A stretch of 54,676 nucleotides of DNA, counting the filler, from Basidiobolus ranarum (lineage: Eukaryota), in the NCBI GenBank assembly GCA_040143965.1. It is 4 parts of 4 records of this genome, joined end to end, with 100 filler letters (N's around TTAATTAATTAA, not from the genome) between each part and the next. Parts side by side here need not be neighbours in the genome. Positions count along the whole stretch, not along the records: positions 13,717 to 27,325 come from JASJQH010000474.1; 3 more parts are not named here. One strand, 5' to 3'. Position numbers and translations under genes: made by a program. The notes beneath the pieces are model-generated. The model was not told where the DNA came from and searched no databases. It was given only the letters and a program-made list of their open reading frames with translations. Numbering within the stretch: the stretch's first letter is position 1; the number at the start of each line of letters is the position of its first letter. Below, piece by piece: positions 3,499 through 47,673 of this stretch.

Positions 3499-4721
3499 TT
3501 AGAAGTTGAGCTTCTTGGGTTGTTCCCAGGAGAATTCTTCACGACCAAAATGTCCGTAACAAGCAGTCTTGGAGTAGATGGGCTTGATAAGGTTGAGTTC
3601 CTTGACGATAACTCCGGGACGGAGATCCCAGTTGTTCTTGATGATCTCAAGGAGCTCGGCGTTAGTCTTGGTGCTGGTACCGTAGGTATCAACAAAGATA
3701 GAAAGGGGCTCGGCAACACCAATAGCATAGGAGAGTTGTACCAAACAACGCTTAGCTAAGCTAGCAGCAACCAAAGACTTGGCGATCCAACGAGCAGTGT
3801 AAGCAGCGGAACGATCGACCTTGGACCAATCCTTTCCAGAGAAAGCACCACCACCGTGAGCACCCCAACCACCATAGGTATCAACGATGATCTTACGTCC
3901 GGTAAGACCGGCATCACCTTGAGGTCCACCAATGATGAACTTGCCTGAAGGATTCAAGTGATAGACGGTTCTTTCATCGAGAAGATGGGCAGGAATAACA
4001 GCCTCAACAACCTTTTCCTTCAATTCACGACGAATGGTCTCGTTGTCAACTTCAGGAGCGTGTTGAGTAGAAATAACAACAGTGTCAACTCTAAGAGGAA
4101 TCATGGCACCGTTATCGTTCTTGTATTCAACGGTAACTTGGGTCTTGGAATCAGGACGTAACCATCCGAGAGTACCATCGCGACGAAGTTGGCTCATCTT
4201 GTAGTTAAGCTTGTGGGAGAGGGTGACGGTAAGGGGCATAAGCTCAGGAGTTTCGTCACTGGCATAACCGAACATAATACCTTGATCACCAGCACCGGTA
4301 TCTTCGATGGCATCACTGACTTGGACCAAACCTTGGGCAATATCAGGGGATTGTTGTTCGATGGCAACAAGAACGTTGCAGGTCTTGTAATCGAAACCCT
4401 TCTCGGAATCATCGTAACCAATGTTACGGATGGTTTCACGAATGACCTTTTGGTAGTCAATTTGAGCCTTGGTGGTGATTTCACCAAAGACCATGATCAA
4501 ACCAGTCTTAGCAGCAGTCTCGCAAGCAACCTTAGAGAGAGGATCTTGAGCGAGGCAAGCATCAAGAATAGCATCGGAGACTTGATCGCAGATCTTGTCT
4601 AATGAGGTAATGACATGTCAGTAAGGGTGGTCAACAAACAAATGTATAGGAATATCTACATACCAGGATGACCTTCGCCAACGGATTCAGAGGTGAAAAG
4701 GAAAGTATCAGCAACGGTCAT
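3499..4721 (-). CDS. SAM2: S-adenosylmethionine synthetase (MAT), 2 exons (intron 4599-4663)
   Basis: [77 protein letters not shown]. Strongly biased codon usage typical of a highly expressed gene. Confidence 0.98.
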
Positions 4722-8300: not shown

Positions 8301-9429
8301 TTTGAGAATCACCTTTCTATATGTGTGAGTGGGTGTGGATGTGTGTGGGTAGTTTGATGACGAAAACAGTTGGAAGAATAGGCTTTCTCCAATCCAGAGA
8401 CTTTCATCTCACATAAATCGAGTAAAAATCAATTCCGAAATATGCTGATCTGGAGAATCCTCAAACTTACGGATCCCGTGCAACATAATGAATCTATAAC
8501 CAGTAAGAACTGATGGTTCAGTCTGGAGAGCAAGCCAATTCGCAAGGCAGGCGAAAGCAATATAACATCTTCGACCCTTCAATCTCATCTTCAACCTTAC
8601 TACGGAACCAAGCCAACTAGACATATGATGGGATTAGAACAAAGAACAACGGTTCTCGAATCACAGAGTGGCGAAGTGCTCAAGTGAAAAGTATCAAGAG
8701 AATATGTTTAACATACTTATGCATGTATCACCATTCTAAAAGCCAAATCAGGAAATCATTAATTAGTGGATGCCCAAACTTAGAAAAGGACACAGTGGTG
8801 TACGAATGGTCAAAAAGAAGTTGGAATTACCTAAAGACATTTTAATGATATATTTGGTGAATGAATTAAGAAAACCAATAAATTGATCTTCCGACTTTAT
8901 TATTTATATTATCTTTTGTACAATTCGCCTGGATCATCACATTCGTTACCCTCTTTGGTATATTACCAGTAACTTGGGTGTTAAGTTGCACAAATGGGGA
9001 GCACCTTATCGTCAATGTTGGCGGTATTAAAACTAAATTTGGAAAGTCAACGGTAGTGAATAGGTATGAATACAACTAGCTTACCATCTGACCAATATTC
9101 GATGACTATGGTTCCTAGATTAAGAAACATTCTGAGCACTCATTGGCTGGGATCAGAATGTGTGCTTCTGATTTGCTCGGATTTAAACATACAGCATTTC
9201 GGTATCGTTCCAAGATCCCTAATCTCAACCCTCACTGTTCCAAACTCCTATATATAGAGATCCTTCAGCTAATATTGTCTGTATCAAAGACAATTGTCGA
9301 CCTACTCATTCTTTTTTGTAATCTTTCAACTCTTCGTCCTTTTGTGTACATTTGCTCTTAGTTTGATTGCTTTTGGTGTCTCCTATTCTCGCTCTTGCCA
9401 AATCTTTGTTCACATACACACCTTAGACC

Positions 9430-11403
9430 ATGTCTTCCGAATTAGTAAACTACAACGGAGAACCTCCTAAGAAGAAGTATCGTCCATCATTAGTCTCTGA
9501 TGCGATTGAATCAGATTACATTGATGAGACTGATTTTGCTCAATATATCGATACATCTAGTTTTGACTTTACTGGGGAATCTGATTCCGCAGATATCCAG
9601 TCTCTAAAAGATGACAACATTGAATTTTCCGAAAAACCTACCAAGAAAGATCTACAAGCACAGAAATCCGCTGAGAATACAGCCACTCCGTTGGAGTCGG
9701 AAACGCTAGAAAATGTAAAGGCCTCTGAAGATCATTCAGATACAGAATTACCAGAACATGACGATGATGTCAGTGATTCTAGAGAAGACAAGAAGGATAC
9801 TGCCTCCTCAAAAAAGCGTACCAGGGCAACTGCTGAGCAACTTTCCATTTTGGAAGAGACTTTCTTGACCAACACATCTCCCAATAGTAAAGTAAGAGAA
9901 GCACTAGCTGAGCGTGTAAAAATGTCTGAGCGTTCCATTCAGATATGGTTCCAGAATCGTAGAGCAAAGGTCAAGTTAATGCAAAAGCGCTCCCATATGC
10001 TACAAGAGGAGGCTTTCAAGCAGCAATACCTTAGTACATGCATGGCCGGATATAATACCAACCTTTATCCATTCCGGATGGGTATGGCACCATATCCTAA
10101 TGGCCGTGTTCCCCTTCCACGTTCAAATACCGAGTTCATCCCTCCAAATATCCCTAGAGCCTCTCCCGTTCCTCATCCTAGTCAACATCTTGGTGTGAAC
10201 ATGTCCGGATACTATCCACCGCAATATCCCGGTCAAATACCCATAGGGTATTCTCCACAGCCATTCATGGCTGGACAAGATCATATTGGTGGTTCTATGC
10301 GTGAGAGACCAACAATGATGGTTCGTAGTATGTCAGCACCTACCACACCCAACGCTGCATCCACTGATGGTTGCTACACATTCTCATGTGATACCTTAGG
10401 TGTCGGCTCATGGAGGCGTATGTCAATAACATCCACCGATCTCATTTGCTTTTTCAATACTGTTGAGAGAAAAATGACCTGGCAAATTATGGATAACAAT
10501 GCCCGTTTCAAACTAGAGTTTCCTTTCACTGCCGTTGTTGGCCTAGAATATCAAACACTGGACGCAGTGTTTAGTCAACTTGCTATCGACATTAGCCAAA
10601 CACCCTCATTTTACATGGAAGTCAAATCTGGAAACGGTCATGTGTGGACACCTTGTCGTGATTTCACCGAAGGAAAACAGGCTTCTCGTTTCTTTAGACA
10701 CGTAATCAAGGGACACTCACAGCCACTGAAAAGCCAATTAGTTATGCTGATGCAAGCTGATCCCAATTTACAACGAGTTACTCAGATTGACGCCCCAGGA
10801 TCAACTCTATCTTCCCAAATGATCCCTGAACGTCCTCAATCGTTCCCAGTTGTTAGCAGCACCGACTCTCATGCTGCGAATATAGAATTCGCTTCTCGTC
10901 GTGCAATTTCAGTTCCTATGCTAAATATGGTAGGCCCAGGTGAAAGGCCCAGAGCAGTTTCAATGGTTTCTGAGATGGGACAGTTTGTCAGTTCAGAAAT
11001 GACTCCAGAGTTACAAGAACAGTTAATTGCCACCCTAAATCAAGGTAGTACCATCGCTATCGGATCCAACATGGCGACCCCTCCATTGGCCGAACATGAC
11101 TTCAATCAACCATCTGCATCCAATTCCCCCATTGAAAACAGCACCCCAACGCCCAGCGAACTGGTGTTGACCTCGCCACTGAGTCTATACCAGAATGCCT
11201 TGGAGCAAAGCCAGTATACCAGTTCCGCTGTTTCTAACCAGAGCACCATTGATCCTATGTTCGGAAACTTGGTACCTCAGATGCCATCTAATGATGGGCT
11301 ACTCAACTACGACCATGAAGTCTATGACCAGATTTTAGTAGGTGGTTACCAGGGTGGGTACCAGGCAGAGCTTCTGAATCAAGAATACAATGGGCAATTC
11401 TAA
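9430..11403 (+). CDS. Homeodomain transcription factor (Phx1/Hoy1/Pah1-like), intronless, 657 aa
   Basis: KKRTRATAEQLSILEETF...ERSIQIWFQNRRAK homeodomain, N-terminal PKKKYR NLS-like motif, and a downstream block (FSCDTLGVGSWRR...FKLEFPF) resembling this fungal family. Confidence 0.92.
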   Translation: MSSELVNYNGEPPKKKYRPSLVSDAIESDYIDETDFAQYIDTSSFDFTGESDSADIQSLKDDNIEFSEKPTKKDLQAQKSAENTATPLESETLENVKASEDHSDTELPEHDDDVSDSREDKKDTASSKKRTRATAEQLSILEETFLTNTSPNSKVREALAERVKMSERSIQIWFQNRRAKVKLMQKRSHMLQEEAFKQQYLSTCMAGYNTNLYPFRMGMAPYPNGRVPLPRSNTEFIPPNIPRASPVPHPSQHLGVNMSGYYPPQYPGQIPIGYSPQPFMAGQDHIGGSMRERPTMMVRSMSAPTTPNAASTDGCYTFSCDTLGVGSWRRMSITSTDLICFFNTVERKMTWQIMDNNARFKLEFPFTAVVGLEYQTLDAVFSQLAIDISQTPSFYMEVKSGNGHVWTPCRDFTEGKQASRFFRHVIKGHSQPLKSQLVMLMQADPNLQRVTQIDAPGSTLSSQMIPERPQSFPVVSSTDSHAANIEFASRRAISVPMLNMVGPGERPRAVSMVSEMGQFVSSEMTPELQEQLIATLNQGSTIAIGSNMATPPLAEHDFNQPSASNSPIENSTPTPSELVLTSPLSLYQNALEQSQYTSSAVSNQSTIDPMFGNLVPQMPSNDGLLNYDHEVYDQILVGGYQGGYQAELLNQEYNGQF

Positions 11404-13616: not shown

Positions 13617-13716
13617 NNNNNNNNNNNNNNNNNNNNNNNNNNNNNNNNNNNNNNNNNNNNTTAATTAATTAANNNNNNNNNNNNNNNNNNNNNNNNNNNN
13701 NNNNNNNNNNNNNNNN
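13617..13716. other. Artificial contig-joining spacer
   Basis: 44 N + TTAATTAATTAA (stops in all six frames) + 44 N; identical to the two other spacers. Confidence 0.98.
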
Positions 13717-16700
13717 AACTGAGGTAGCACGATCCTTAGAAGCAGCACTAGAGGGTCTAGGTCTAGTAGCAACGGGACGAGTAGGGCCTACATGAGCTGG
13801 CGCACCTTTTGATTCAACTGGTTTCCTAGAACTGGCTACTGAGCTCACTTTGGTAGTAGGTGCAGGCTTTGGTGCAGAAGTTCTACTAGTTGCAGTAGTA
13901 GTAGTAGCAGGCTTGGTGGCGGTTCTTAAGGTAGAAGGAACTCGAGTTCTGGTTCCATCCTTGCTAGCAGCAACTTTGGCTTGTTCTCCGGTGATAGGTG
14001 AACGACCACTGGGAGGCATACTGGATCTCTTAGGTGCGGTGGCGGAAGCGGTAGTGGACCCAGCAGCAGGACGGACGCTTCTCTTTGCAGTAGTAGCATC
14101 GCTCACAGATACAGGACGAGGTTTTGCTTGAGTGGTTGTAGCACGACTGCCATTTGGTGGGGCAGCACGCATAACAGGGCTACGAGTGGGTTTCTTAGCA
14201 CCATTACTTGCACTATCTGCGTTACCAAAGACGATCTTGATTTCGCGTGAAGCGCTGGAAAAAGAATCACTGCCATGTACAGCATTCTTAGATCCATCAG
14301 TACCATACAAAGCACGAATACTTTTTGGAGCAGCTTCTTTAGCCTTTACTGAGTTAGTTGGGCCCATCAAATCTCTCCAAGCTTTAACTGCGCCTTCTTT
14401 TCTAAGAACCATGGCGTAGACAGGAGCACTGCTCATCCAAGTGATAAGCTTTTCGAAGAAAGGCTTTCCATCATGTTCGGCGTAAAACTCCTTAGCCTTG
14501 AGTCTAGTAAGTCTAACTTCTTTTTCTTTAACAATAGTGAACCCTTCTTTCTTAATGATCTTCTGAATGTTGATCTTACGACCAGCACCATAGGCATCGG
14601 GCTTAATAAGGGCCAATGTTTGTTCAATATCACTTTGGGATACGTTTGAAGATGCTGAAGTGCTTGAAGGGCTAAACACAATCTTAATCTCACGGGTAGC
14701 ACTATCAACAGAATCACTTCCATGTACAGCATTATGAGATCCATCTGTACCAAAGAGTGCACGGATACATTGGGGATTTTCCTCCTTAGCCTTAATAGAA
14801 TTGGTTGGGCCAATTAAGTCTCTCCAAGCTTTAATAGCATTATTCTTCTCTAGAATCAAAGCGTAAATAGGTTGGCTAGTCATGAATTCAACCAAACCTT
14901 CGAAGAAAGGTTTGCCTGTATGTTCTTTGTAAAACTCCTCCGCTTGACTCTTGGTAAGGGTGATTTCTTTCTCTTTGATAATGGCAAAGCCATCCTTCTT
15001 GATAATATCAATGATTGCTGCTTTGTTACCGGCACCATATGCGTCAGGCTTAATTAGAGCTAAAGTGCGTTCTAATTGAGCTTGGGTTTCGGTAGTAGCC
15101 TCTTGTTCAGCCGGTTCATCAACGGATCCCGCATGGTCAACACTAATATCTTTCTCAGGTTCGGGGTTAGCTTCTTCAGGTACAGCATCACTTGGATTTT
15201 CTGCAGTTGCCACGGCATCCTCATTCAATACTTCAGCAGTACCTTCGCTTTGTACCTCAGCACTTTCAAGGCCAGGTTGAGATTCTACGTCTTCAGGTAA
15301 TACATCATCACCATTCTTGGGTGGCTCATCATCCGTTACATTCTGGATTTCTGTATCTGCCACTTCCTGTGGTTGGGAATCAGCAACATCCTCTGCTGGC
15401 TGAGAATCTTCTTGATTTGAAGCCTCAACAGCTTCTTCACTAGGAGTAGCAACATCCTTTTCTGCTTGAGAATCTTCTTGATTTGAGGCTTCAACAACGT
15501 CTTCAGGTTGCTGGTTCACTTCGCTTGAAGTCATAACATCCGCTTCAGTATGAGAATCTTCTTTTGAAACAGGAACTTCATATTCAGGCTCATCTTGGGA
15601 TTTGGTTTGGCCAAAAACTATACCAATTTCTCTTTTAGCATTGGCAATCGAGTCACTGCCGTGAACAGCGTTTTTAACACTGTCGGTACCATACAAGGCC
15701 CTGATACTTCCATGAGATTCAAACTTCGCTTTCAGAGAATTAGCAGGACCCATCAAACTGCGCCACTCTTGGACGGCATTTTCTTTTTCTAGTACCATAG
15801 CTAGAGAAGGAGCACTAGTGAGTAGATTCACAATGTTTTCAAAGAAACGTTTTTCTTTGTATTCACTGTAAAATTCTTCAGCCAGAGATTTGCTAAAAGT
15901 GACTTCTTCAGATTTAACAACAACAAACTTTTTCTCTTCAATTAATTGAAGAATATCCTCTTGGCGGCTTGTTCCGTAAACATCTGGCTTAATGAGAACA
16001 AAAGTTTGCTCTTCATTGCTTACTTCAAGTTTATCATCCTCAGTAGCTAATTCCTCTGTCACGTTGGTATTCTCAGTATCAGCCTGTTCATCAGCAACAG
16101 GGATGACTGGTACTTCATTCAAAGCTTCTTCGGGAGTCTTCTCAGGAAGTAATGCGGATTCTTCTGCAGATACATCCTCACGGTGTGGCTCGTGAGTTTC
16201 AGTTTCCTTAAGCTCGGTAATGTCATCGGTAACAACCTCATCATTGTTCTCAATGCTTGGTTCAGGGATTTCTGAATCAGCTGGAGCAACGGAGTCAGAA
16301 TCTACAACTTCATGTACCTCAGCATCTTCATGGGGCTGGCTTGAGGTGTTATCTTCGTTGCTGTTGTCAACTTCCTCCGTGACCTCAGAATCTTCAATAG
16401 CTTTAGAATCTTGGTCTTCAACCACTGGTTCTACGGTATCGGATTCATGTTGAACAGGCTCCTCAGATTCCAATTCTTGAGAAACAACATCCTTTGTACC
16501 ATCGTTTCCTTCTTCAACTTCAAGGTTTGATTCTTGCTCAACATCTGGGGGAGAACTTTCTTCTGAATCCTCGACATGGTTGTCTTGAGGTAAAACATTT
16601 GAATCAACAACGTCAGTGGCTTCGGTTTGTTCTTCGTCATCTTGCTTTTGTAAATCTAATGATTCAACATGGTTCTCACTTTCATTCTCTTCGGTAACTA

Positions 16701-18318
16701 AATCAGCCTCTTCATTAGTTTTCTCTTCGTTGACTGACACAGTTTCTTCATTGGTTTGATCTCCGTTGGTTAGATCAGTTTCTTCAATGGTTTGTTCTCC
16801 GTTGATTAGAGCAGTCTCTTCATTGGATTGTTCTCCATTGGTTAAAGCAGCTTCTTCATTAGACTGTTCACCATTTACTTTAGCATCAACTTGCTCAGTA
16901 CTATCTTCTTGAGAGAGTTCGAGACTCTCTTTTTGGTCCTCCAATACTTCTTCCTGATCATTCTCAGTGGTCGATTGAATGACATCAGATTCAATGGGTG
17001 CTTCGGTGTTATCCACATCAACACCAGCAGTAAGAGATTCGAAGAATTGTGGGAAAAAGAATGTGATTTCTCGGTTAGCAGCTTCCTTGGACTCACTTCC
17101 ATGAATAGCGTTCTTAACCTCATCAGTTCCGTAAAGGGCACAAATACTATATTAACTATAGATTAGTATTGAATAAAGGGTATTATAATAAAAGTGATTT
17201 ACCTTTGTGGCCGGGTGATTCTTGCAACCTCAACATCAGCTGGACCCATCATCTCTCTCCATCCACGAACTGCGTTAATTCCTTTGAGAAGGACGACGTG
17301 AACCTCACCACTACATTAACAAAAATTTGATGAGTATTTACTATTGATCATGATTCAAAAGTATATCCCAGTTACCTAGTCATAAATGAGATGAGATCTT
17401 TATAGAAAGGTTTACTTTTCTGATCTTTGTAAAATTCTTTAACTTGATCTTCAGTTAATTGTAACTTTTCGAAATTCAACACCTCGAATCCTTTATAATT
17501 AATCGCCTTTAATATGGTATCAGAATGACCGGCAGCAACTGCATCTGGTTTAATCATTCCCAAAGTGTACTCGGATTTAAATAAAGTATCGTCTCCGTGC
17601 TCTTTAGAATCACTAACCATAGTATGTATACTATTGGCGAAGACGAACTCAATTTCTCTTTTAGCGGCCTCAACAGAGTCAGAACCATGGACAGCATTCT
17701 TGGTGATATCAACGCCGAACATAGCACGAATACTATATTGAATTGGTTATAAATCATGAGTCAATATGAACACTCAAATAAAAAATGGATATATCACCCA
17801 CCTATTAACATCCGTATCTCTAGCAACTTCAGGATCGGTAGGGCCTAATAATTTTCTCCATATTTGAACTGCATCATCTTGACGAAGTTCAAAAGCCATA
17901 ACAGGAGCACTATTTATGAGAGGTACAGGTTAATATAGAGAAGTAACCAAATTGAAGTGAAAAAAAACCCTCGAAGAGTACCAAGTAATGTAAGAGATTA
18001 ACTCTTCGAAAAAGGGTTTATCCTTATGTTCAAGATAAAACTCTGAAGCAGATTCTCTGGTAAACCAGAATTTCTTTTGGCGTACGAGCTCAAAGCCGGC
18101 CAGTTGTACCAGGTCTTTGATAGCTTGGATGCGGTGAGGTGTGAGACAGTCTGGTTTGATTAAAGCCAAAGTACTCTCAATTTGGTTTTGTTCCTCAAAG
18201 TTCTAATAAAAGACATTAATGAAAGGTGAAAAGAAAGTGAATAAGCTAGAATAGAGTGGGAGTAGTAAATAGCAAGCTTTAGTACCTGAGAATCAACATC
18301 AGTAGGTTCGGGTGCCAT
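13717..18318 (-). CDS. Large multi-domain nucleoside diphosphate kinase-like protein (five group-II-like NDK domains, acidic linkers, basic tail); 3' end truncated by contig end
   Basis: ATG 18318 (MAPEPTDVDSQ) spliced through five introns into the long ORF-track exon. Five IKPD...FY...WR..(L/M/I)GP...NA(V/I)HGS(D/E)S...REI units. Confidence 0.9.
16695..16875 (-). repeat. Intragenic 36-bp (12-aa) tandem repeat in the acidic linker
   Basis: NGEQSNEEAALT NGEQSNEETALI NGEQTIEETDLT NGDQTNEETVSV NEEKTNEEADLV. Confidence 0.8.
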
Positions 18319-25839: not shown

Positions 25840-27325
25840 ATGACGAAAGAAAAGATAAAGAAAAAGGGGGGTGGCAAATCCAAACCTCATAAAGAGCCCG
25901 TTAAAAATGAAAGTGTGGAGAACGTGGTCGATTCTCTTAAAGATAATACCCGATATAATGGGAAAAAGGCTGGCGATCCTATACCAACTGTCGAGGTATT
26001 GCTCTATAGTTTCTAAATCTACTTCATCGCGACGACATTCTAACCTTTCTGATAGGATAAATGGCAACTTTTACCCGCCTTTTTAAAAGTCAAGGGTCTG
26101 GTTAAACAACACATCGATTCATTTAACTATTTTATCAACGTTGATTTAAATAAGATTTTGAAGGCTAACGAGAAAGTAACTTCTGATGTCGATCCCAACT
26201 TTTATCTAAAGTAAGCGCTTTTAAAACATCAATCGATTCGATGTACATCTTGTTTAAACTGTTTCATAAGATATACTGGTATTCGCGTTGGTAAGCCTGA
26301 GCGAACCGATCCTCATGCTGTCAATTTAGAATACACACCTCACGAGTGTCGCCTTAGAGACCTCACTTATTCGACTAACATCTATGTCGACGTTGAATAT
26401 GTTCGCGGTAGGCAACTTGTGCGTCGTCGTGGAGTTCCCATTGGTAGAATGCCTATTATGCTACGTAGTTCTCACTGTGTTCTAAGTGGTAAAGATGAGG
26501 CGGAACTCGCCAAAATGTGCGAATGCCCCTTAGATCCAGGCGGCTACTTCATCGTCAAGGGCACTGAAAAAGTTATTCTTGTTCAAGAACAATTGTCCAA
26601 GAATCGTATTATTGTTGATGTGGATCGTAAAGGAATGGTTGTTGCTTCAGTCACAAGGTATGATGTCCAGTTTATCGAAACAGTGTTTATACGGCTAGAC
26701 TCATAGGTGCCCATTGTTAGTTCCACGCATGAGAGAAAGAGTAAAACCTACGTAACGGTCAAACACGGAAAGCTTTATCTACGCCATAATTCTATCAATG
26801 AGGACCTGCCTGTTGTTATTGCCATGAAGGTTAGTTAATATGTAATGTTATTTCCATCATTTATAGATTGATATTTTAATATATGAATTACATAGGCTAT
26901 GGGCTTACAAGCCGACAAAGAAATTGCGCAGTTAGTTGGTGGCAGTGATCCTTCATTCCTCGATGCTTTCGCTCCTAGTTTGGAAGAATGTGCGAGATTC
27001 AAGATCTTCACCCAACAACAGGCCCTGGATTATATTGGGAGTAAAGTTAAAGTCACTAGAAAGATTGCAAGCATCAGAAGGCCCATGGTATGTATCAATT
27101 CCAGTGGCTTATTGATAATATGCTAAAAACTCGTAAATTATAGTCTGAGGAAGCTCTTGAAATTTTATCTTCAGTAATTTTGGCACATGTTTTGGTAGAT
27201 GGCCTCAACTTCCGCCCTAAATGTATTTATCTTGCTGCTATGATTCGCCGTGCCATCATGGCGATGAATAATGAAAGACTTATCGACGATCGTGATTATG
27301 TTGGTAATAAGAGACTAGAATTGGC
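25840..27325 (+). CDS. RPC2: RNA polymerase III second-largest subunit, 5' part (truncated at contig end)
   Basis: [97 protein letters not shown]. These motifs are Pol III (RET1)-type. Confidence 0.95.
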
Positions 27326-27425
27326 NNNNNNNNNNNNNNNNNNNNNNNNNNNNNNNNNNNNNNNNNNNNTTAATTAATTAANNNNNNNNNNNNNNNNNNN
27401 NNNNNNNNNNNNNNNNNNNNNNNNN
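27326..27425. other. Artificial contig-joining spacer
   Basis: N-run/TTAATTAATTAA/N-run, 100 nt. Confidence 0.98.
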
Positions 27426-27788
27426 GATTACGACGAATACGATGGGGACGGTCATGGAAGAGGAAAGAAGTATGGTGGTGGTGGTGGTGGTGGTGGGGAC
27501 GACTACGATGATGATGAGTATGATGGTCACGGTGATGGAGGTGACTACAAGCACGGAGGTGGAAGAGGAAGGAAATATGGTGGTGGCGGTGGTGGTGATG
27601 ACTATGATGATGATGATGAGTATGATGGACATGGTGGAGGAAGAGGAAAGAAATATGGCGGTGGCGGTGACGACTATGATGATGAATATGATGGGCACGG
27701 TGACGGAGGTGACTACAAGCATGGAGGTGGAAGAGGAAGGAAATATGGCGGTGGTGGTGGTGATGATTACGGTCATGGCAAATATTAG
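27426..27788 (+). CDS. 3' end of a Gly/Asp/Tyr/His/Lys-rich repeat protein (5' truncated); true frame is not in the ORF track
   Basis: The frame starting at 27426 is open for 120 codons: DYDEYDGDGHGRGKKYGGGGGGGGDDYDDDEYDGHGDGGDYKHGGGRGRKYGGG...DDYGHGKY-TAG. Variation between repeats falls at third positions in this frame (GGT/GGA/GGC, GAT/GAC). Confidence 0.8.
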   Translation, partial: DYDEYDGDGHGRGKKYGGGGGGGGDDYDDDEYDGHGDGGDYKHGGGRGRKYGGGGGGDDYDDDDEYDGHGGGRGKKYGGGGDDYDDEYDGHGDGGDYKHGGGRGRKYGGGGGDDYGHGKY

Positions 27789-28161: not shown

Positions 28162-29692
28162 CTAACATTGGCCTTGATCGAACCAAACCTTTTGAGTGTT
28201 ATTCCCCGGAGCATCGTTCTGGGTCCACCATTTAGCTTTCCAGAGATGGTTATTGTAGGTTACTTTTTGGGTGCCTCTATATGCTAAAGTAGGAGACCAT
28301 CCAGTGACTCCAACGCAATTCCCAAGAGCTGGGTTGTTGCCAGTAATGGGTGTCACTTTAGAAGTGGGTGACTGAGAGGCAGTCGTAGTGCTAGGCTTGC
28401 GAATTTCTTGTAGAGCATTTAGTAGCTCGTCATTCGAATCATGAGTCATATCCCAATACATAACACCACGTAGCCCTTGCTGCTTAGTATAGTCCACTTT
28501 AACTTTGATGGATTGAGGGTCATCGTAGGAGATATACATCTTACTACTAGCACTGAACAGCCATGGAGTCTGGGTAGTACTGTCCCAATATCTATTCCAA
28601 CCTGGGATAGGATTGGTGAGTCCATTTTTAAGAATCTCACTTCTTAAATATTTCCAAGCCCAAAGACCACCATAAACTGACCCTTCATTGCAAAAGGAAT
28701 TTGGTATATTGGAATCGACAGGGTCACCCTTTGGAACAGTAGATTGCTTAGACACATACTGGTTTAAAGGATTAACGTTCATGTCTACCGTAGTAGTCAC
28801 AGATCGTCCGTAGAATGGCAGCCCCATGACCAATTTTTCAGCTGGCCATTTGGCATCCAACCAAGTCTTGGAAGCTTGGCGAAAAGAAAATGGATCTCCA
28901 CCTTTAGAATCGTAATCGAATGGTGCATTTGGGCCAGTTGTAGCTGACCAGCCACCATTGATATCATAAGCCATTACATTAACAAAATCGAAGTATGGTA
29001 CGAAGGAAGAAACATCATTTAAAGGACTTCCGTTAGGCCCATCAAAAGGTTGAACTCTCACTGCGGCAGTTAGTAGCTTGTGTTCATTAGGAAACTCTTT
29101 ATCCAATGCAGCCCTAAGTTCCTTAAGAAGGCTCAGATAGTTGGCACTGTCTGCAGCGTCATGCACGTTGCATTTTGCTCCTAATCTGGCTGGGTACTCC
29201 CAATCGATATCGATACCATCGAAATCCCAACCATCTGGACTTTGGCCCACTGGCTTAGTGTTCTTTCGTACGAATACGAGAGCATTGTTGATAAATTTCT
29301 GACGTAGAGAAGGATCACGAACAACAAGTGAAAATGTCTGGCTACCGGTCCAACCACCCACTGATATGAGTACCTTTACGCCCTTCGCTTTAGCTAGCTG
29401 AGTCAATTGACGGATTGCGTTACCATCATAAGTTGGATCGATGTAGATATTAGCTGGATCCTCCCTTTTTGTTAATACACCGAAACCTAAAAGCAAATGT
29501 AAGTCATACAACTTATAATCACGTGAATGGAAATATGTTACCGTAGTTAATATGAGTAACCTTGTCGTAGCTGAGTTGACTAGGTTGAACCCTCCCCCAA
29601 GGGACGTAATATCCTACAATCACCTTATCGTTTGCACGAACTAAGGCAACAGTGGAAACAAGAGCGGAAAGAAGGGCGAGTGAAATCTTCAT
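28162..29692 (-). CDS. Secreted GH18 chitinase with C-terminal CBM5/12 (ChtBD3) module, 2 exons
   Basis: Signal peptide MKISLALLSALVSTVALVRA, IVGYYVPW, KVLISVGGW, catalytic DGIDIDWEYP, VMAYD, ISYDDPQSI..K, GVMYW. S/T linker, then KVTYNNHLWKAKWWTQNDAPG. Confidence 0.96.
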
Positions 29693-30703: not shown

Positions 30704-31753
30704 TCATAATGCCAAAAACTCCTCCTTTTTCCGATAATACTCATTGAACCGGAGTACAGCATAACTCATGTAATCGAAATCAATGTCGGAAAGTTGAGCT
30801 TGAACTAATGCCCATAGACCCCAGAAAATATGGGACGCAAGAGCAAATTGGTTCACCTCCCGATATAATGTGTCTACTTCCACGCTTGTAGGCGCCTTCC
30901 CCTGTGCAGACTCAAGATACTTAGCGAGCCATACTAATTGGTACTCCCTATCCGGATACCTTGAATAATCACACTCGAAGCCTGCATATTCAGCGAAATG
31001 ATTTCCAATATCAAACCCACGGAAACTGTAAGATCCATATTCGTAATCAATGAAAGAGCAAGAGTTACTTTCTGGCTCATAAATAAGATTGGCCGAAAGT
31101 AAGTCATTATGACTGAACACAACTGGTGCATCAAGCTGAGTCAATTTTTCTTCCAGACTGTTTAATTCGTCGTTTAGCACCGAAAGATCAAAGTGCTTTT
31201 GAAAAATTCGATTAGCCTCTGGGTTATCGTATGTAGTGGGAACGTCATGTAGCCATCTTCTTAATGTTTTAAACAACTGTGGCGAATGGTCCCCTAAGAT
31301 ATTAACTTGATGCCATGTAGCCAATTTTTCGGCCACTAGCAAAGAGGTTTTGAGGTCGGACATCATATCCAAAGAGTATACTTGACCTGCGATGTATCCG
31401 TAGATAAACCCATTCTTAAAGCGACCGTACAAGGGTGGACAAAGGCCAAGTTTGGCGAGACCGGTAAGGTTAATTAGCTCTTGTCTTCTATCAATCAATA
31501 CTTCGGACTTTTTTCCGTACGCACGGATTAATACTGATTGACCATCACTATGTTTACAACGTACGAGTTTATTCGTGATACCATCTTTGCACTGAGTAAA
31601 TGTCAACTCGGATTCTTTCCACTCTGGAAAGACGGTTAGTACAACCTTTAAGGCAGAGGGGATTAAGGTATCGTGATGAACGATATAATCCAGATTTGGC
31701 ACTTCATGATCGATGAAATGTTCCAATTCGGAGAGAGTGAGAAGTTGATTCAT
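30704..31753 (-). CDS. Ethanolamine/choline kinase, intronless
   Basis: GITNKL, VLIRAYG, YGRFKNG, Brenner motif FSHNDLLSANLI, FIDYEYGSYSFRGFDIGNHFAEYAG, LASHIFWGLWAL. Start taken at MNQLL (31753). Confidence 0.93.
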   Translation of the reverse strand: MNQLLTLSELEHFIDHEVPNLDYIVHHDTLIPSALKVVLTVFPEWKESELTFTQCKDGITNKLVRCKHSDGQSVLIRAYGKKSEVLIDRRQELINLTGLAKLGLCPPLYGRFKNGFIYGYIAGQVYSLDMMSDLKTSLLVAEKLATWHQVNILGDHSPQLFKTLRRWLHDVPTTYDNPEANRIFQKHFDLSVLNDELNSLEEKLTQLDAPVVFSHNDLLSANLIYEPESNSCSFIDYEYGSYSFRGFDIGNHFAEYAGFECDYSRYPDREYQLVWLAKYLESAQGKAPTSVEVDTLYREVNQFALASHIFWGLWALVQAQLSDIDFDYMSYAVLRFNEYYRKKEEFLAL

Positions 31754-32375
31754 CTCGTATAAAGTGGTGTACAATAGAAAGTGAGATAAGAGACAAAACG
31801 AACTCGCACGGATAAAAGACACCCTCACTGACTTAATAAAGAAAATTAGCAAGGCGAATCACGGATAGTCTTATCTAAGTACAATTTGCATTCGTTGGGG
31901 TTTGAAAAAGTGGATAATCGAATTATACGCTATAGTTTTGTAGCATGTGATCTGGTTTCAAAAGCTATCTTGGCTCCTCTTACATGCACACACAGACTAA
32001 ATCATTGATTCCATAACAATTCATAATATTTAATACGTTGTAAAAAGCGATTGGTGCAACATGGATATGTTCTATGTTCTCATATACTAATTGCGCTGTT
32101 GTAACCACTCAAATCATTGGGCTTCCAATTTTATCCATTTTGGATTTAAATATGGTATCCTTTTTGGATTCGGCCAATTTTCTCTGAGCGAATCAATTGC
32201 AAGAATGTTGAGGCGATAATATTGAATATTCGTATATATTCTATTCTATATCTCTCAACATCATAATGTTTAATTCGAGAATATTATGATGACTACCATA
32301 TTAAGAATAATTGAGTGAATTTTATTGCGTTAATCATAACTCTTCATTGAGAAGACAGTATTTAAATAATCTAAT

Positions 32376-41015: not shown

Positions 41016-41115
41016 NNNNNNNNNNNNNNNNNNNNNNNNNNNNNNNNNNNNNNNNNNNNTTAATTAATTAANNNNNNNNNNNNNNNNNNNNNNNNNNNNN
41101 NNNNNNNNNNNNNNN
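41016..41115. other. Artificial contig-joining spacer
   Basis: N-run/TTAATTAATTAA/N-run, 100 nt. Confidence 0.98.
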
Positions 41116-44439: not shown

Positions 44440-45879
44440 TTAACTTAAATTTTTCATTTCTACGTCAGATTCATTGCCTTCCGGTAGCATGGTGTACGGA
44501 TATTCTTGTTGAAGAAAGCGCTTAAATGTATGTTGATACATTAGAAGTTTGACTTCGGCCAAGGCTTGATCCAGCATATCAAGTGCATATTCATCGTCTC
44601 GAATTCTTCTTTCAATTTCAGATACAATTTCTCCCTTAAGGTTTACTTGGTAATCAGAATCCATTTGAATGAACGTCTCATAGATTGATTTCAGCTCTAC
44701 TCTGATTTCTACTGGCAAACGATCTTCCTTTGTCGGGTCATGGCTCTTGACAAAGGCAGTTGGTGTAGTGCGTAGTCTAAGATAACGTTCATAGAATAGC
44801 GCATTTTCAATACTAAAGTCCTTCACGGTAAAGGCTTTAAACTTTTCGAAAAGAATCGGATGTTCAAGGACTTCCTCGAAACTAGGCAATTTTCGTCCGT
44901 TGAGATAGTTTTTGGCTCTTTTGTTAGTTTGGTAAATCTCAATCAATGGCAGGCCACAGTTCAGTAAATGTATGGACCACAATGTGCAGAAACCCCAAGT
45001 GCCTACTGGAATGACCGCACGAACATCATACAATACGGGGGTATAACTGAACAACAAGTGAAATAAAAATCCAGTTCCTGTTGCCAATACAATGAGTGAA
45101 AGCTCTTTGACAATGTTATAAGCGTCTGATACTCCTCGAATATATCGGATTACAATACTGCCGAACAAAAAGATCTCACAAGAGCCTATGACATAAACCG
45201 GAATGTATTCCCAACCGTTGAAACAGTCCAACCGTGGGTGTGCGGTGAAGGCATAGCTTTGAGTAAAAGCTTGTACTGTTATCGTCAATGCGATGTGGAA
45301 GAGGGTAAGGCCACCAAGAATACGAATTAGAAATCGATCTTCAAAGATATACGAATGGCGCTGAATCCAGTTACTTTCAAGGTCGTAATCTTGCGAAAGT
45401 TTTAGGTTTGTCGAAGAATCGATAGTTAAAAGCACGATAGACGGGTCACTTGATTGGTCTTTATTGGAGTTGATGGAGTTTGTCTTGCTTTTCTCCCTAA
45501 GTCCTTCCTGGCGACGCCTTTCAGCCTTCAGCTTAGCCAATGATGATCTGTAGAGATATGCGACACGAAGGAATTTCCCGACAGTGGTCAGCATAGTCAC
45601 TGGTGTCAACAGTGAACCAAACCACAAAGTTACAAAGCATGGTAGAAAGCTGGCAAATACAGGGCCCATCAAATATACTGTAGACAGCACAACATTTGCT
45701 GCTACTCCGATCATTGTAATTAGGAGACTACGTGATCGAATACCTGGGTGTTCTCTATATTTCCAGAAAAAAGTCGTAGTAATGAGGACTGATGACACAT
45801 ATAGTACGTATACCACGAATATTGATGCTTTCTGCCCATCAGAGACAGGAAAATCTTCAGCAGCCATTCTGTGTACCAT
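44440..45879 (-). CDS. Seven-transmembrane protein with C-terminal RGS domain (GprK-like), intronless
   Basis: Hydrophobic helices (IRSRSLLIT, FLPCFVTLW, DAYNIVKEL) followed by RGS motifs SFEEVLEHP..FEKFKAFTVKDFSIENALFY, IYETFI..S.YQVNL, LMYQHTFKRF. Start is 45879 or 45867. Confidence 0.88.
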   Translation of the reverse strand: MVHRMAAEDFPVSDGQKASIFVVYVLYVSSVLITTTFFWKYREHPGIRSRSLLITMIGVAANVVLSTVYLMGPVFASFLPCFVTLWFGSLLTPVTMLTTVGKFLRVAYLYRSSLAKLKAERRRQEGLREKSKTNSINSNKDQSSDPSIVLLTIDSSTNLKLSQDYDLESNWIQRHSYIFEDRFLIRILGGLTLFHIALTITVQAFTQSYAFTAHPRLDCFNGWEYIPVYVIGSCEIFLFGSIVIRYIRGVSDAYNIVKELSLIVLATGTGFLFHLLFSYTPVLYDVRAVIPVGTWGFCTLWSIHLLNCGLPLIEIYQTNKRAKNYLNGRKLPSFEEVLEHPILFEKFKAFTVKDFSIENALFYERYLRLRTTPTAFVKSHDPTKEDRLPVEIRVELKSIYETFIQMDSDYQVNLKGEIVSEIERRIRDDEYALDMLDQALAEVKLLMYQHTFKRFLQQEYPYTMLPEGNESDVEMKNLS

Positions 45880-47673
45880 ACACGCTCTGTATAGATGAGT
45901 TGAAAATAGATACTTGGTACAACCCACGCTCAGACACCCTTTTATAGCCTCTTCATCCAGGCTGACCTACATAATGATAACTACCTCATTCTGTACAAGT
46001 TTCTTGTTCTACATATACTCTTCCCTTTTCGGGTTATATTCTGTTCTTTTTCGAGAATCGTATATGGCTCAAGCTTCGTAAGAGGAATCGCAAGATGTAC
46101 ATAGGATCAGTACTCTATAGGTTTTCATTCATGCTCTCTGCCAACAACAGAGCCAAACGTACACTTCAAGTGAATACATGTACTCCTGAAACTATTTGTT
46201 CTCCAATCTTGAATCGATTCAAGACTGTCAGCCCCCTATTACCGTTACCATAGATGCGACTTGAATGAACATTGAAACGCCCTGTGGTGAGAGATATAGA
46301 TCGGGCACAATTGAGAAGGCTGCGATAAATACCTGCTAAGCATGGTTTGAAAATCATTCAAGAATTGAATGTGAATGAATGATACTTATGGGAGGCAATC
46401 TTTTAATAAAAGTCAATTTACATATGGCTTAACACATCCCTACATACGGTGACAAACCATTTTAGACAAGAATTTAAGCAAGTCGAAGGGAGGAGTGACT
46501 CTGGCAAAGCATCAAATATAATTTCTCATGGGCCTACATTATCTAATTACACTGGTTGTCATTTGGGCGTGATTCTCGCGACAAAAACATACATCAAGAA
46601 AAGTAACTCATGGCATTAGTATGCATTGCTAATGCAAGGAAATTAGCGCACTTCCAATGTAAACTGCCATAGTTAATTTCCCTAAATATATCACCAATTG
46701 ACGTAATTCGATAATTATCTCAACCAGTTTTGAACCGGTATGTTCTGCTCTCCTGTCTTGCAAAACTCTTTGTATTCTACAATTAAAGAGCAACTCATTT
46801 GGTTATGTAACTTGAACAATGTTGATCTAAAGATGACTATAAATGCTTCCTTAATCCCCCGCACTGTGACCTGAGTCACTTACAGTGCGATTAGTTTCAC
46901 TGTATTTCTCGGATTCGACTCTGAAATCATTATGTGATCGATTCATCTCACTTTACTATAACATAAACTCTGACCACTCACATGGTACTGTTCTTCCTTT
47001 CCCTAATACCTGTTCAATCAAATCGAAGCTAAGAAGCTGCGAACCACATGAAACAAAGTTTATGCCTAAACTTTAAGGTTAGTTGATAGCATATGGATTA
47101 TTCTGTGGCACATCATTGTATCAATTAAATAGCACAATTGCCATATCAAAGTTCCCGATTCAAGGTCACAGCCACAATGCGTCCACTCTTTCTAGAGAGT
47201 GATTTTGGGACGCAACGACTCACAAATTGTTCTCCTAGGGGGATCTACAGGCTTTTAATGGGCATTGGAAGTGCCAGAAGTCTAGGTGATAGTTGAGTTA
47301 TTGTTATTTCAAAGCTTAGTAATTTGACCTGAAACAACTTCAATATCTTCGATTATTGGTCGTGACCACCACCACTGTGAGTACACCAAGCCAATGCGGT
47401 AGCTGGAAAAGATGTTGGTTGCTTATGTCAGCTGGTCTTTCATGCTTCGGATCGCTAACACTGTATAAGGGGGCAGCTTATAGGCCTTTCATTCCTATTT
47501 GATTTGGTAGACTATTGATACGTCCCAATTTTCATGACGTAAGAAATCTTATTATTCAATTAGAAAAGTTCTAGCGACATTTTGTACTGACTACATCACC
47601 AGTGAGATTTCTACCAGTGGGCAACTATTCAGAGGAAGGATGGAATCATTGCATTTTATTTTTAATATTAGCA

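Follow-up and report, generated by a model that had tools for sequence, protein, structure and literature searches.

NME7/FAP67, which carries a DM10 domain and two nucleoside diphosphate kinase (NDK) domains, is an inner protein of axonemal doublet microtubules and a partner of the gamma-tubulin ring complex. Group II NDKs have been treated as cilium proteins, and the chain in which a thioredoxin (Trx) domain is joined to NDK domains has been treated as axoneme-bound. This chain, TNDK-IC, is presented in the available part of PMC4415241 as an opisthokont-specific component of outer-arm dynein. In the accessible sections of a 2026 review (PMC13256974), NME8 is a component of the outer dynein arm, NME8 and NME9 are ciliary, NME9 binds microtubules and is an animal-specific duplicate of NME8, and neither human protein has detectable nucleoside diphosphate (NDP) kinase activity. 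Desvignes et al. 2010 (PMC2978717, in the portion available) considered Nme8 a choanoflagellate/metazoan innovation that is absent from fungi. Here, we examined a gene for a chain of five NDK domains in Basidiobolus ranarum, a fungus without a flagellum, located in a window of 54,676 nucleotides (the whole stretch of DNA that was analyzed). The gene very likely belongs to the Trx/NDK family and has been retained, with its NDK part in good order, in the absence of the flagellum.

Gene model and domain architecture

The window consists of four contigs of ~13.6 kb, joined by artificial linkers (N44-TTAATTAATTAA-N44) at positions 13617-13716, 27326-27425, and 41016-41115. Features that touch a joint are truncated, among them the present gene, and nothing can be concluded from adjacency across a joint. 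The multi-NDK gene lies on the minus strand of the second contig (18318-13717), where a stop-free frame extends from 17151 to 13717 and continues straight into the joint, with four shorter NDK-like frames upstream of it. The splice model comprises six exons and five GT..AG introns (4257 bases, 1419 codons, zero stops), and the spliced product is letter-for-letter identical to P0001, deposited in GenBank as 'hypothetical protein K7432_008496, partial [Basidiobolus ranarum]'; the public annotation reaches the same model and likewise labels it partial. Because the 3' end is cut by the contig joint without a stop codon, the protein is incomplete, and the rest of the tail, perhaps with more, is missing. 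No S/T/P/A-rich open frame that could continue the tail was present at any end of the other three contigs in the window. The features of the locus are as follows.

Exons 18318-18286, 18202-17982, 17909-17802, 17732-17376, 17310-17203, and 17146-13717, minus strand: whole gene up to the contig edge (splice model; identical to P0001)
17633-18181, minus strand: NDK domain 1, A type, residues 19-154, two introns, 10/10 key residues (profile; domain tree support 88)
17047-17575, minus strand: NDK domain 2, B type, residues 174-309, two introns, catalytic His kept, T94A and R105C (profile; tree support 91)
16015-17046, minus strand: acidic spacer 1, residues 310-653, 344 amino acids (aa), net charge -106, tandem-repeat region at 16709-16875 (composition, repeat search)
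15607-16014, minus strand: NDK domain 3, C type, residues 654-789, 9/10 key residues (T94A) (profile; C-type clade 95)
15076-15606, minus strand: acidic spacer 2, residues 790-966, 177 aa, net charge -49 (composition)
14668-15075, minus strand: NDK domain 4, C type, residues 967-1102, 10/10 key residues (profile, domain tree)
14221-14628, minus strand: NDK domain 5, C type, residues 1116-1251, 10/10 key residues (profile, domain tree)
13717-14220, minus strand: basic S/T/P/A/K/R-rich tail, residues 1252-1419, net charge +24, pI 12.0, cut by the contig end (composition)
13617-13716, no strand: artificial contig joint (N44-TTAATTAATTAA-N44) that truncates the gene (sequence inspection, splice model)

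The Pfam NDK family (PF00334) matched the whole product in five stretches (score 718 bits, cut-off 27, E 1.7e-219) and also matched the exon pieces and the long open reading frame (ORF) individually, and no other Pfam family was found on the product at E up to 0.01. The spacers are rich in acidic residues (D+E of 0.34 with a pI of 4.05 in spacer 1, and D+E of 0.31 in spacer 2), and each contains a tandem repeat, of 36 bases (12 aa) in 4.2 copies at 16709-16860 in spacer 1 and of 66 bases (22 aa) in 1.9 copies at 15382-15505 in spacer 2; these repeats are young. Such low-complexity, D/E-rich stretches may conceivably be eroded NDK domains. The tail, which is at least 168 aa long, has a K+R fraction of 0.18 and an S/T/P/A fraction of 0.61. 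Domains 4 and 5 are 68% identical, and their AlphaFold2 (AF2) model contains two canonical NDK folds with a floppy linker between them (pLDDT 91.5, pTM 0.59). When this model was compared with known structures using Foldseek, the NME7 chains of doublet microtubules ranked first and aligned over both NDK domains, and the matches to crystal structures of single NDKs had TM values of 0.8-0.94. The Protein Atlas returned only generic NDK clusters for residues 1-310, with scores <0.9.

The introns at 17910-17981 and 17733-17801 lie in NDK1 and those at 17311-17375 and 17147-17202 lie in NDK2; the two pairs match in domain position and in phase (a split codon after ..IT/..MT, and before S-I-R/C-A), and NDK3-5 are intronless. 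Old introns that are absent from the C-type domains are apparently common to the A and B domains. A single exon of 3430 bases begins within domain 2 and continues into the tail, so the B and C parts are not separate genes. An initial annotation, made from the sequence alone, had proposed one spliced gene for a product of more than 1400 aa with the order NDK1-NDK2-acidic linker-NDK3-acidic linker-NDK4-NDK5-basic tail, and both proposals agree with the splice model and its identity to the GenBank protein, at 1419 aa with five PF00334 stretches and spacers of 344 and 177 aa. The extent that it gave, 13717-18318, must be read differently: position 13717 is the last base before the contig joint, not the end of the gene, and the strand is minus.

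Placement in the Trx/NDK family

The C-terminal half was searched against proteins of 629-2004 aa, which yielded 330 matches among 7997 scored candidates, with 120 listed. The best relatives among the matches listed, after the protein itself, were chytrid proteins of 928-1777 aa with 46-62% identity, named 'thioredoxin domain-containing protein 3/6' or 'nucleoside diphosphate kinase', most of which contain both PF00085 and PF00334; proteins of Blastocladiomycota, molluscs, a brachiopod, fishes, and sharks (TXNDC3/6) came next among those listed. Among solved structures, NME7/FAP67 of doublet microtubules was the best match (E 3.7e-57 to 2.5e-44), followed by radial-spoke RSP23 (1.4e-44), NME5 (1e-33), and TXNDC6 of the human axoneme entry 8j07 (1.7e-27). 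Single-domain group I or bacterial NDKs mostly scored 1e-26 or weaker, the best of them being an Aquifex structure (3zto, 2e-31) just ahead of TXNDC6. Judged by these sequence matches, the protein is nearer to the group II NME proteins (NME5-9) than to group I or bacterial NDKs, and we rejected a housekeeping Ndk1-type enzyme given this affinity. The protein has at least three tandem NDK domains and its nearest relatives are Trx-NDK proteins; the nearest named family is TNDK-IC/NME8/NME9, the thioredoxin/NDK outer-arm dynein intermediate chain, to which human NME8/DNAI8 and NME9/TXNDC6 belong. An NME7 orthologue was also considered and rejected, as the product has no DM10 domain (PF06565, PF25364) and NME7 forms its own clade (96).

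A domain tree was constructed by a quick method from 63 complete domains of 20 proteins, with four partial domains dropped and no group I sequence. Domain 1 grouped with the first domains of the fungal homologues (88) and domain 2 with their second domains (91), and domains 3-5 formed one clade with all third-and-later fungal domains (95); the NME7 domains stood apart (96), and the animal A, B, and C domains formed a group of their own (90). Based on these positions, the layout of the five domains is therefore A-B-C-C-C. Domains 4 and 5 appear to result from a Basidiobolus duplication that was already present in B. meristosporus. A second tree was constructed by a careful method from the A-B pairs of 25 proteins (291 columns), also with no group I sequence. 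In this tree, the fungi split from the animal outgroup at 100/100, and the Dimargaritales joined Coemansia in a Kickxellomycotina clade at 97/94; Basidiobolus was located at the fungal base, unplaced, outside the chytrid/blastoclad/aphelid group (81/87), and forcing it together with Kickxellomycotina cost 0.91 units of log-likelihood (lnL; p-AU 0.33). As far as the sequences tell, the data fit vertical inheritance within Zoopagomycota, with a single clade not proven, and lend no support to a chytrid contaminant.

Retention of the family in non-flagellated fungi

The A-B pair was searched against proteins of <780 aa (7199 matches among 8000 candidates, 120 listed). The best match among those listed was P0121, 'nucleoside diphosphate kinase, partial [Basidiobolus meristosporus CBS 931.73]' (614 aa, 74% identity), which is encoded on a 172,649-base contig of an independent assembly, and a Coemansia interrupta protein (P0152) was also among them. 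A search with P0152 gave 40 matches, comprising 20 from Coemansia, 1 from Kickxella, 1 from Linderina, 1 unnamed (64% identity), 5 from chytrids, and 12 unnamed or from protists; PF00085 was found in none of the 22 named Kickxellales proteins and in 4/5 chytrid proteins of the same search. An exhaustive HMMER search with P0121 over 1.84 billion representatives detected 394 proteins at E ≤ 1e-30, of which 150 were listed. Nine of the 119 listed proteins not seen before were closest to Basidiobolus/Coemansia in a BLAST comparison with labelled sequences; of these, three belong to Tieghemiomyces parasiticus, Dimargaris verticillata, and Dispira parvispora (all Dimargaritales), two are Coemansia fragments, and the remaining four come from environmental records without a name. 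Ten more proteins were looked up and proved to be from an aphelid, a chytrid, and unnamed records; the other look-ups that carried an organism name were oomycetes and Vitrella. No Mucoromycota or Dikarya members were seen among the 20 of the 119 new matches that were looked up, a provisional result. The family is thus kept in non-flagellated Zoopagomycota, namely in two Basidiobolus species, Kickxellales, and Dimargaritales; relatives occur in at least three aflagellate lineages, always Trx-less.

NDK domains were counted in the retrieved proteins with a hidden Markov model (HMM) derived from the five domains of the B. ranarum protein. Chytrid homologues contain 4-9 of them (nine in P0003 and eight in P0002, P0004, and P0005) and the animal proteins three; five domains in one chain are therefore not unprecedented. 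At the C-terminus, many chytrid proteins and the two blastoclad proteins examined carry a basic tail that is rich in S/T/P/A and contains SKxASR-like repeats (net charge +5 to +17, S/T/P/A 0.34-0.66), and the tails of the mollusc and brachiopod proteins are strongly acidic. Since multi-NDK chains and basic tails both occur in chytrids and blastoclads, both are inherited family traits. The linkers of the chytrid proteins examined measure 40-116 aa and are mostly non-acidic. The chytrid (8-9 NDK domains) and blastoclad (three-domain) Trx-NDK proteins conflict with the absence of Nme8 from fungi stated in the available text of PMC2978717 and agree with the opisthokont-specific view in that of PMC4415241.

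The aflagellate relatives differ in layout. Kickxellales proteins consist of A-B, a spacer of ~90-170 aa (D+E 0.16-0.23), one C domain, and a tail of 360-680 aa, and Dimargaritales proteins consist of A-B and a long tail only. Like the B. ranarum protein, they come from aflagellate Zoopagomycota, lack Trx, and have an N-terminal A-B pair and a long disordered tail, and those of Kickxellales also share a partly acidic spacer between B and C; however, B. ranarum has three C domains against one in Kickxellales and zero in Dimargaritales, the tails of both groups, at 550-800 aa in this comparison, are not consistently basic, and the Coemansia A domain is catalytically dead (His to Asp, 4/4). The chytrid, blastoclad, and Olpidium Trx + NDK(n) proteins, all uncharacterized, are the closest relatives (46-62% over the C-terminal half); their domains follow the A-B-C(n) order as well, and their tails are likewise basic and rich in S/T/P/A. 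They differ in that most have an N-terminal Trx domain, the number of NDK domains ranges from 3 to 9, the linkers are mostly short and non-acidic (the longest is 116 aa), the A/B domains often lack the catalytic His, and the hosts are flagellated.

TNDK-IC/NME8, animal members of which were among the best full-length matches listed, resembles the B. ranarum protein in combining tandem group II NDKs with long charged disordered regions in one chain. However, it has Trx and three NDK domains, whereas the B. ranarum protein is Trx-less with five, the Glu-rich tails of molluscs and the brachiopod contrast with the basic tail of B. ranarum, and the animal A/B/C domains do not correspond one-to-one with the fungal ones in the domain tree; furthermore, TNDK-IC is a dynein subunit of axonemes, and B. 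ranarum has no flagellum. NME9/TXNDC6 (Txl-2), which was matched in entry 8j07, belongs to the same family but has one NDK domain and Trx. NME7/FAP67 is the best solved-structure match by both sequence and fold, with both NDK domains aligned, but it has DM10, and the relative orientation of its two domains differs or is undefined (rmsd ~18 Å). The resemblance to classical microtubule-associated proteins (MAPs) of the tau/MAP2/MAP4 type is compositional only.

The initial annotation had called the domains group-II-like, which is supported by NME7/FAP67, RSP23, and NME5 ranking ahead of all group I and bacterial NDKs and TXNDC6 ranking behind Aquifex only, and the per-domain phylogeny that it suggested placed the domains as A-B-C-C-C with the fungal homologues, apart from NME7. 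Its suggestion of an axonemal relic stands in the form of an axonemal-type protein retained in a non-flagellated organism, with the closest relatives coming from flagellated fungi and animals. In contrast, its premise of 1-3 NDK domains for group II proteins does not hold against the 4-9 of the chytrid homologues, and the basic tail is an inherited trait of the fungal family rather than a novelty. The architecture is, in its multi-NDK chain and basic tail, already present in chytrids; what is new is the absence of Trx, the long acidic spacers, and the survival in non-flagellated Zoopagomycota, in a protein already deposited as hypothetical. Searches of the open-access literature found no description of multi-NDK proteins from Basidiobolus or other Zoopagomycota, although the flagellar-gene tables of comparative papers may list the family.

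Multi-NDK giants are also widespread among flagellated protists. In the set P0036, P0039, P0113, P0114, P0347, and P0375, unnamed eukaryotic proteins of up to 1400-1640 aa contain three NDK domains fused to adenylate/UMP-CMP kinase domains, and an Aphanomyces protein of 1348 aa and a Saprolegnia protein of 1296 aa contain three NDK domains near the N-terminus.

Absence of the thioredoxin module

The Trx family PF00085 was absent from the product by Pfam, in a comparison in which the Spizellomyces control was positive (Trx at residues 126-214). When the first 300 residues of 14 homologues were searched against the window with tblastn, only the NDK domains of the gene itself matched at E ≤ 0.001; the sole weak match (P0008, E 0.015) falls on another contig. 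The five upstream minus-strand ORFs gave zero Pfam matches at E up to 1. We infer that the loss of Trx and the retention of the gene came after the loss of the flagellum.

Catalytic residues and selection

Ten group I NDK positions were tabulated for each domain, and these we take to be, in human NME1 numbering, K12, Y52, F60, R88, T94, R105, N115, H118, S120, and E129; the catalytic His lies in the N-x-x-H-G-S-D motif. In the B. ranarum protein, 47/50 of these residues are canonical and all five domains have the catalytic His: domains 1, 4, and 5 keep all ten, domain 3 keeps nine (T94A), and domain 2 keeps eight (T94A, R105C). The C-type domains of seven chytrid/blastoclad proteins are complete in 17/17 cases (10/10 key residues), and in A-type domains the His is lost in 4/7 chytrid/blastoclad proteins and 4/4 Coemansia proteins. 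Identity to the B. meristosporus protein is ~93% in domain 1 and ~80-90% in domains 4 and 5; the two proteins have the same short N1-N2 linker, and a single residue distinguishes their N4-N5 linkers. To judge from these alignments, the gene bears the mark of purifying selection and is no decaying relic.

In the Coemansia proteins P0152, P0235, P0236, and P0246, the first domain has Asp for the catalytic His (4/4), with other key residues changed as well, and the second domain is canonical in 3/4; that of P0246 lacks the His and two other key residues. The B. meristosporus protein P0121 has no spacer 1 and a spacer 2 of only ~38 aa, and in its residues ~156-292 the first 37 residues of NDK2 are joined in register to the last 99 of NDK3; this join reflects either a genuine recombination event between repeats or an error of the gene model.

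A proposed tethered NDP kinase and its alternatives

The gene is a genuine, conserved B. ranarum gene and very likely the Zoopagomycota form of the opisthokont Trx/NDK family, and we propose that its product probably works as a tethered multi-site NDP kinase. It would descend from a gene of the fungal ancestor with the layout Trx + NDK(A)-NDK(B)-NDK(C)n + basic tail, as in zoosporic fungi, whose NDK modules were kept without the Trx module; the C type would have been duplicated in the lineage and the two long acidic low-complexity spacers gained. Each competent domain is predicted to transfer the gamma-phosphate of ATP via phospho-histidine to GDP or another NDP, and such catalysis, as read from the conserved motifs, is a reasonable expectation. 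The basic tail (pI 12) may anchor the enzyme to an acidic polymer, and because the family has an axonemal and microtubule record, this polymer would most plausibly be the microtubule lattice or a microtubule-containing mitotic organelle, where the tethered enzyme could supply GTP locally. The acidic repeat-rich spacers may be flexible projections, or intramolecular partners that fold back on the tail. The location at microtubules or a microtubule-organizing center is the more tentative part of the proposal, and we regard it as possible rather than probable. In this regard, Basidiobolus lacks flagella and centrioles, as described in the available portions of PMC6492006 and PMC1599754, and has a microtubule-containing mitotic organelle, as described in the same portion of PMC6492006. 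The NDK part would have a flagellum-independent job that is separable from the Trx part lost along with the flagellum.

Several observations weigh against this proposal. The 3' end is missing, and the status as a single transcript is based on the reading frame and the GenBank model. The N-terminal Trx domain, the defining feature of TNDK-IC/NME8, is absent, and no tubulin-binding repeat of the classical MAPs (tau/MAP2/MAP4) was found on the product by Pfam at E up to 0.01. The AF2 model of domains 4-5 has no confident interdomain packing (pTM 0.59). The Kickxellales tails range in net charge from -57 to +23, so a basic tail is not conserved across Zoopagomycota. In the A-B tree, Basidiobolus and Kickxellomycotina formed a single clade in only 22% of the bootstrap trees, and forcing Basidiobolus together with the chytrids, at a cost of 5.5 lnL (p-AU 0.066), is not formally rejected.

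The product could instead be a non-catalytic scaffold, in which the NDK folds are binding modules and the charged disordered regions organize a complex, as for human NME8/NME9. Both human proteins are reported, in the accessible part of PMC13256974, to have no detectable activity, so intact motifs are no proof of catalysis; the A/B domains of the chytrid, blastoclad, and Coemansia homologues often lack the His (A type: 4/7 and 4/4), and domain 2 of B. ranarum itself carries T94A and R105C. However, His118 is present in 5/5 Basidiobolus domains, domains 1, 4, and 5 have 10/10 key residues, and the chytrid/blastoclad C-type domains are intact in 17/17 cases, a pattern that is hard to explain without selection on catalysis, and we therefore consider such a pseudo-kinase unlikely. 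An ordinary soluble metabolic NDP kinase without a cytoskeletal role, in which tandem domains multiply activity and the charged regions are neutral expansions, would account for the intact catalytic residues, for the recent tandem repeats of the spacers, and for the spacers being absent or far shorter in the B. meristosporus model and hence fast-evolving. This is improbable to a similar degree, since the sequence affinity is to axonemal group II rather than housekeeping group I proteins, the A-B-C order and disordered tail are kept across distant fungal lineages, and the two Basidiobolus species have conserved the short linkers between domains. A fragmented assembly, the truncation of the gene by the edge of its contig, and a differing middle part in the B. 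meristosporus model could all point to an artefact, namely a chytrid contaminant contig, a decaying pseudogene, or two wrongly joined neighboring genes. Yet an orthologue with an N1 ~93% identical exists in the independent B. meristosporus assembly (172,649-base contig), the frame runs for 1419 codons without a stop, with 3430 bases of it in one exon, and the contig neighbors are ordinary eukaryotic genes, so that we give an artefact very little credence.

A bolder extension of the tethered-kinase proposal is that the protein and its Kickxellomycotina relatives are a surviving component of a degenerate centriole. The spindle pole body of Coemansia contains a nine-microtubule ring, and its composition is stated to be unknown (PMC6070874). 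The site would be this ring in Coemansia and the mitotic organelle in Basidiobolus, and an axonemal-type multi-NDK protein would have been redeployed to feed GTP to, or mark, the centriole remnant. The two aflagellate groups in which the family was first found are those with described centriole-like remnants; however, this coincidence rests on a very small number of studied species, and animal NME8 belongs to the dynein arm, not to the centriole. We consider this extension speculative and improbable. If true, it would provide the first molecular handle on the conversion of the fungal centriole to the spindle pole body. The protein is, in any case, a concrete candidate for localization in two fungal groups with described centriole-like remnants.

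Other features of the window

The other large frames of the window, including the contig neighbors, belong to ordinary eukaryotic genes.

3499-4617, minus strand: S-adenosylmethionine synthetase
9427-11403, plus strand: homeodomain protein with a TRF2/HOY1 PH-like domain
26215-26706, plus strand: RNA polymerase Rpb2 fragment
28162-29613, minus strand: GH18 chitinase with CBM5/12
30704-31858, minus strand: choline/ethanolamine kinase
44440-45966, minus strand: RGS-domain protein with a weak, sub-threshold 7TM match

In addition, a plus-strand frame at 27426-27785, which is already open where the third contig begins, codes for a low-complexity repeat rich in Gly, Asp, Tyr, and His (DYDEYDGDGHG..GGGGGG..).

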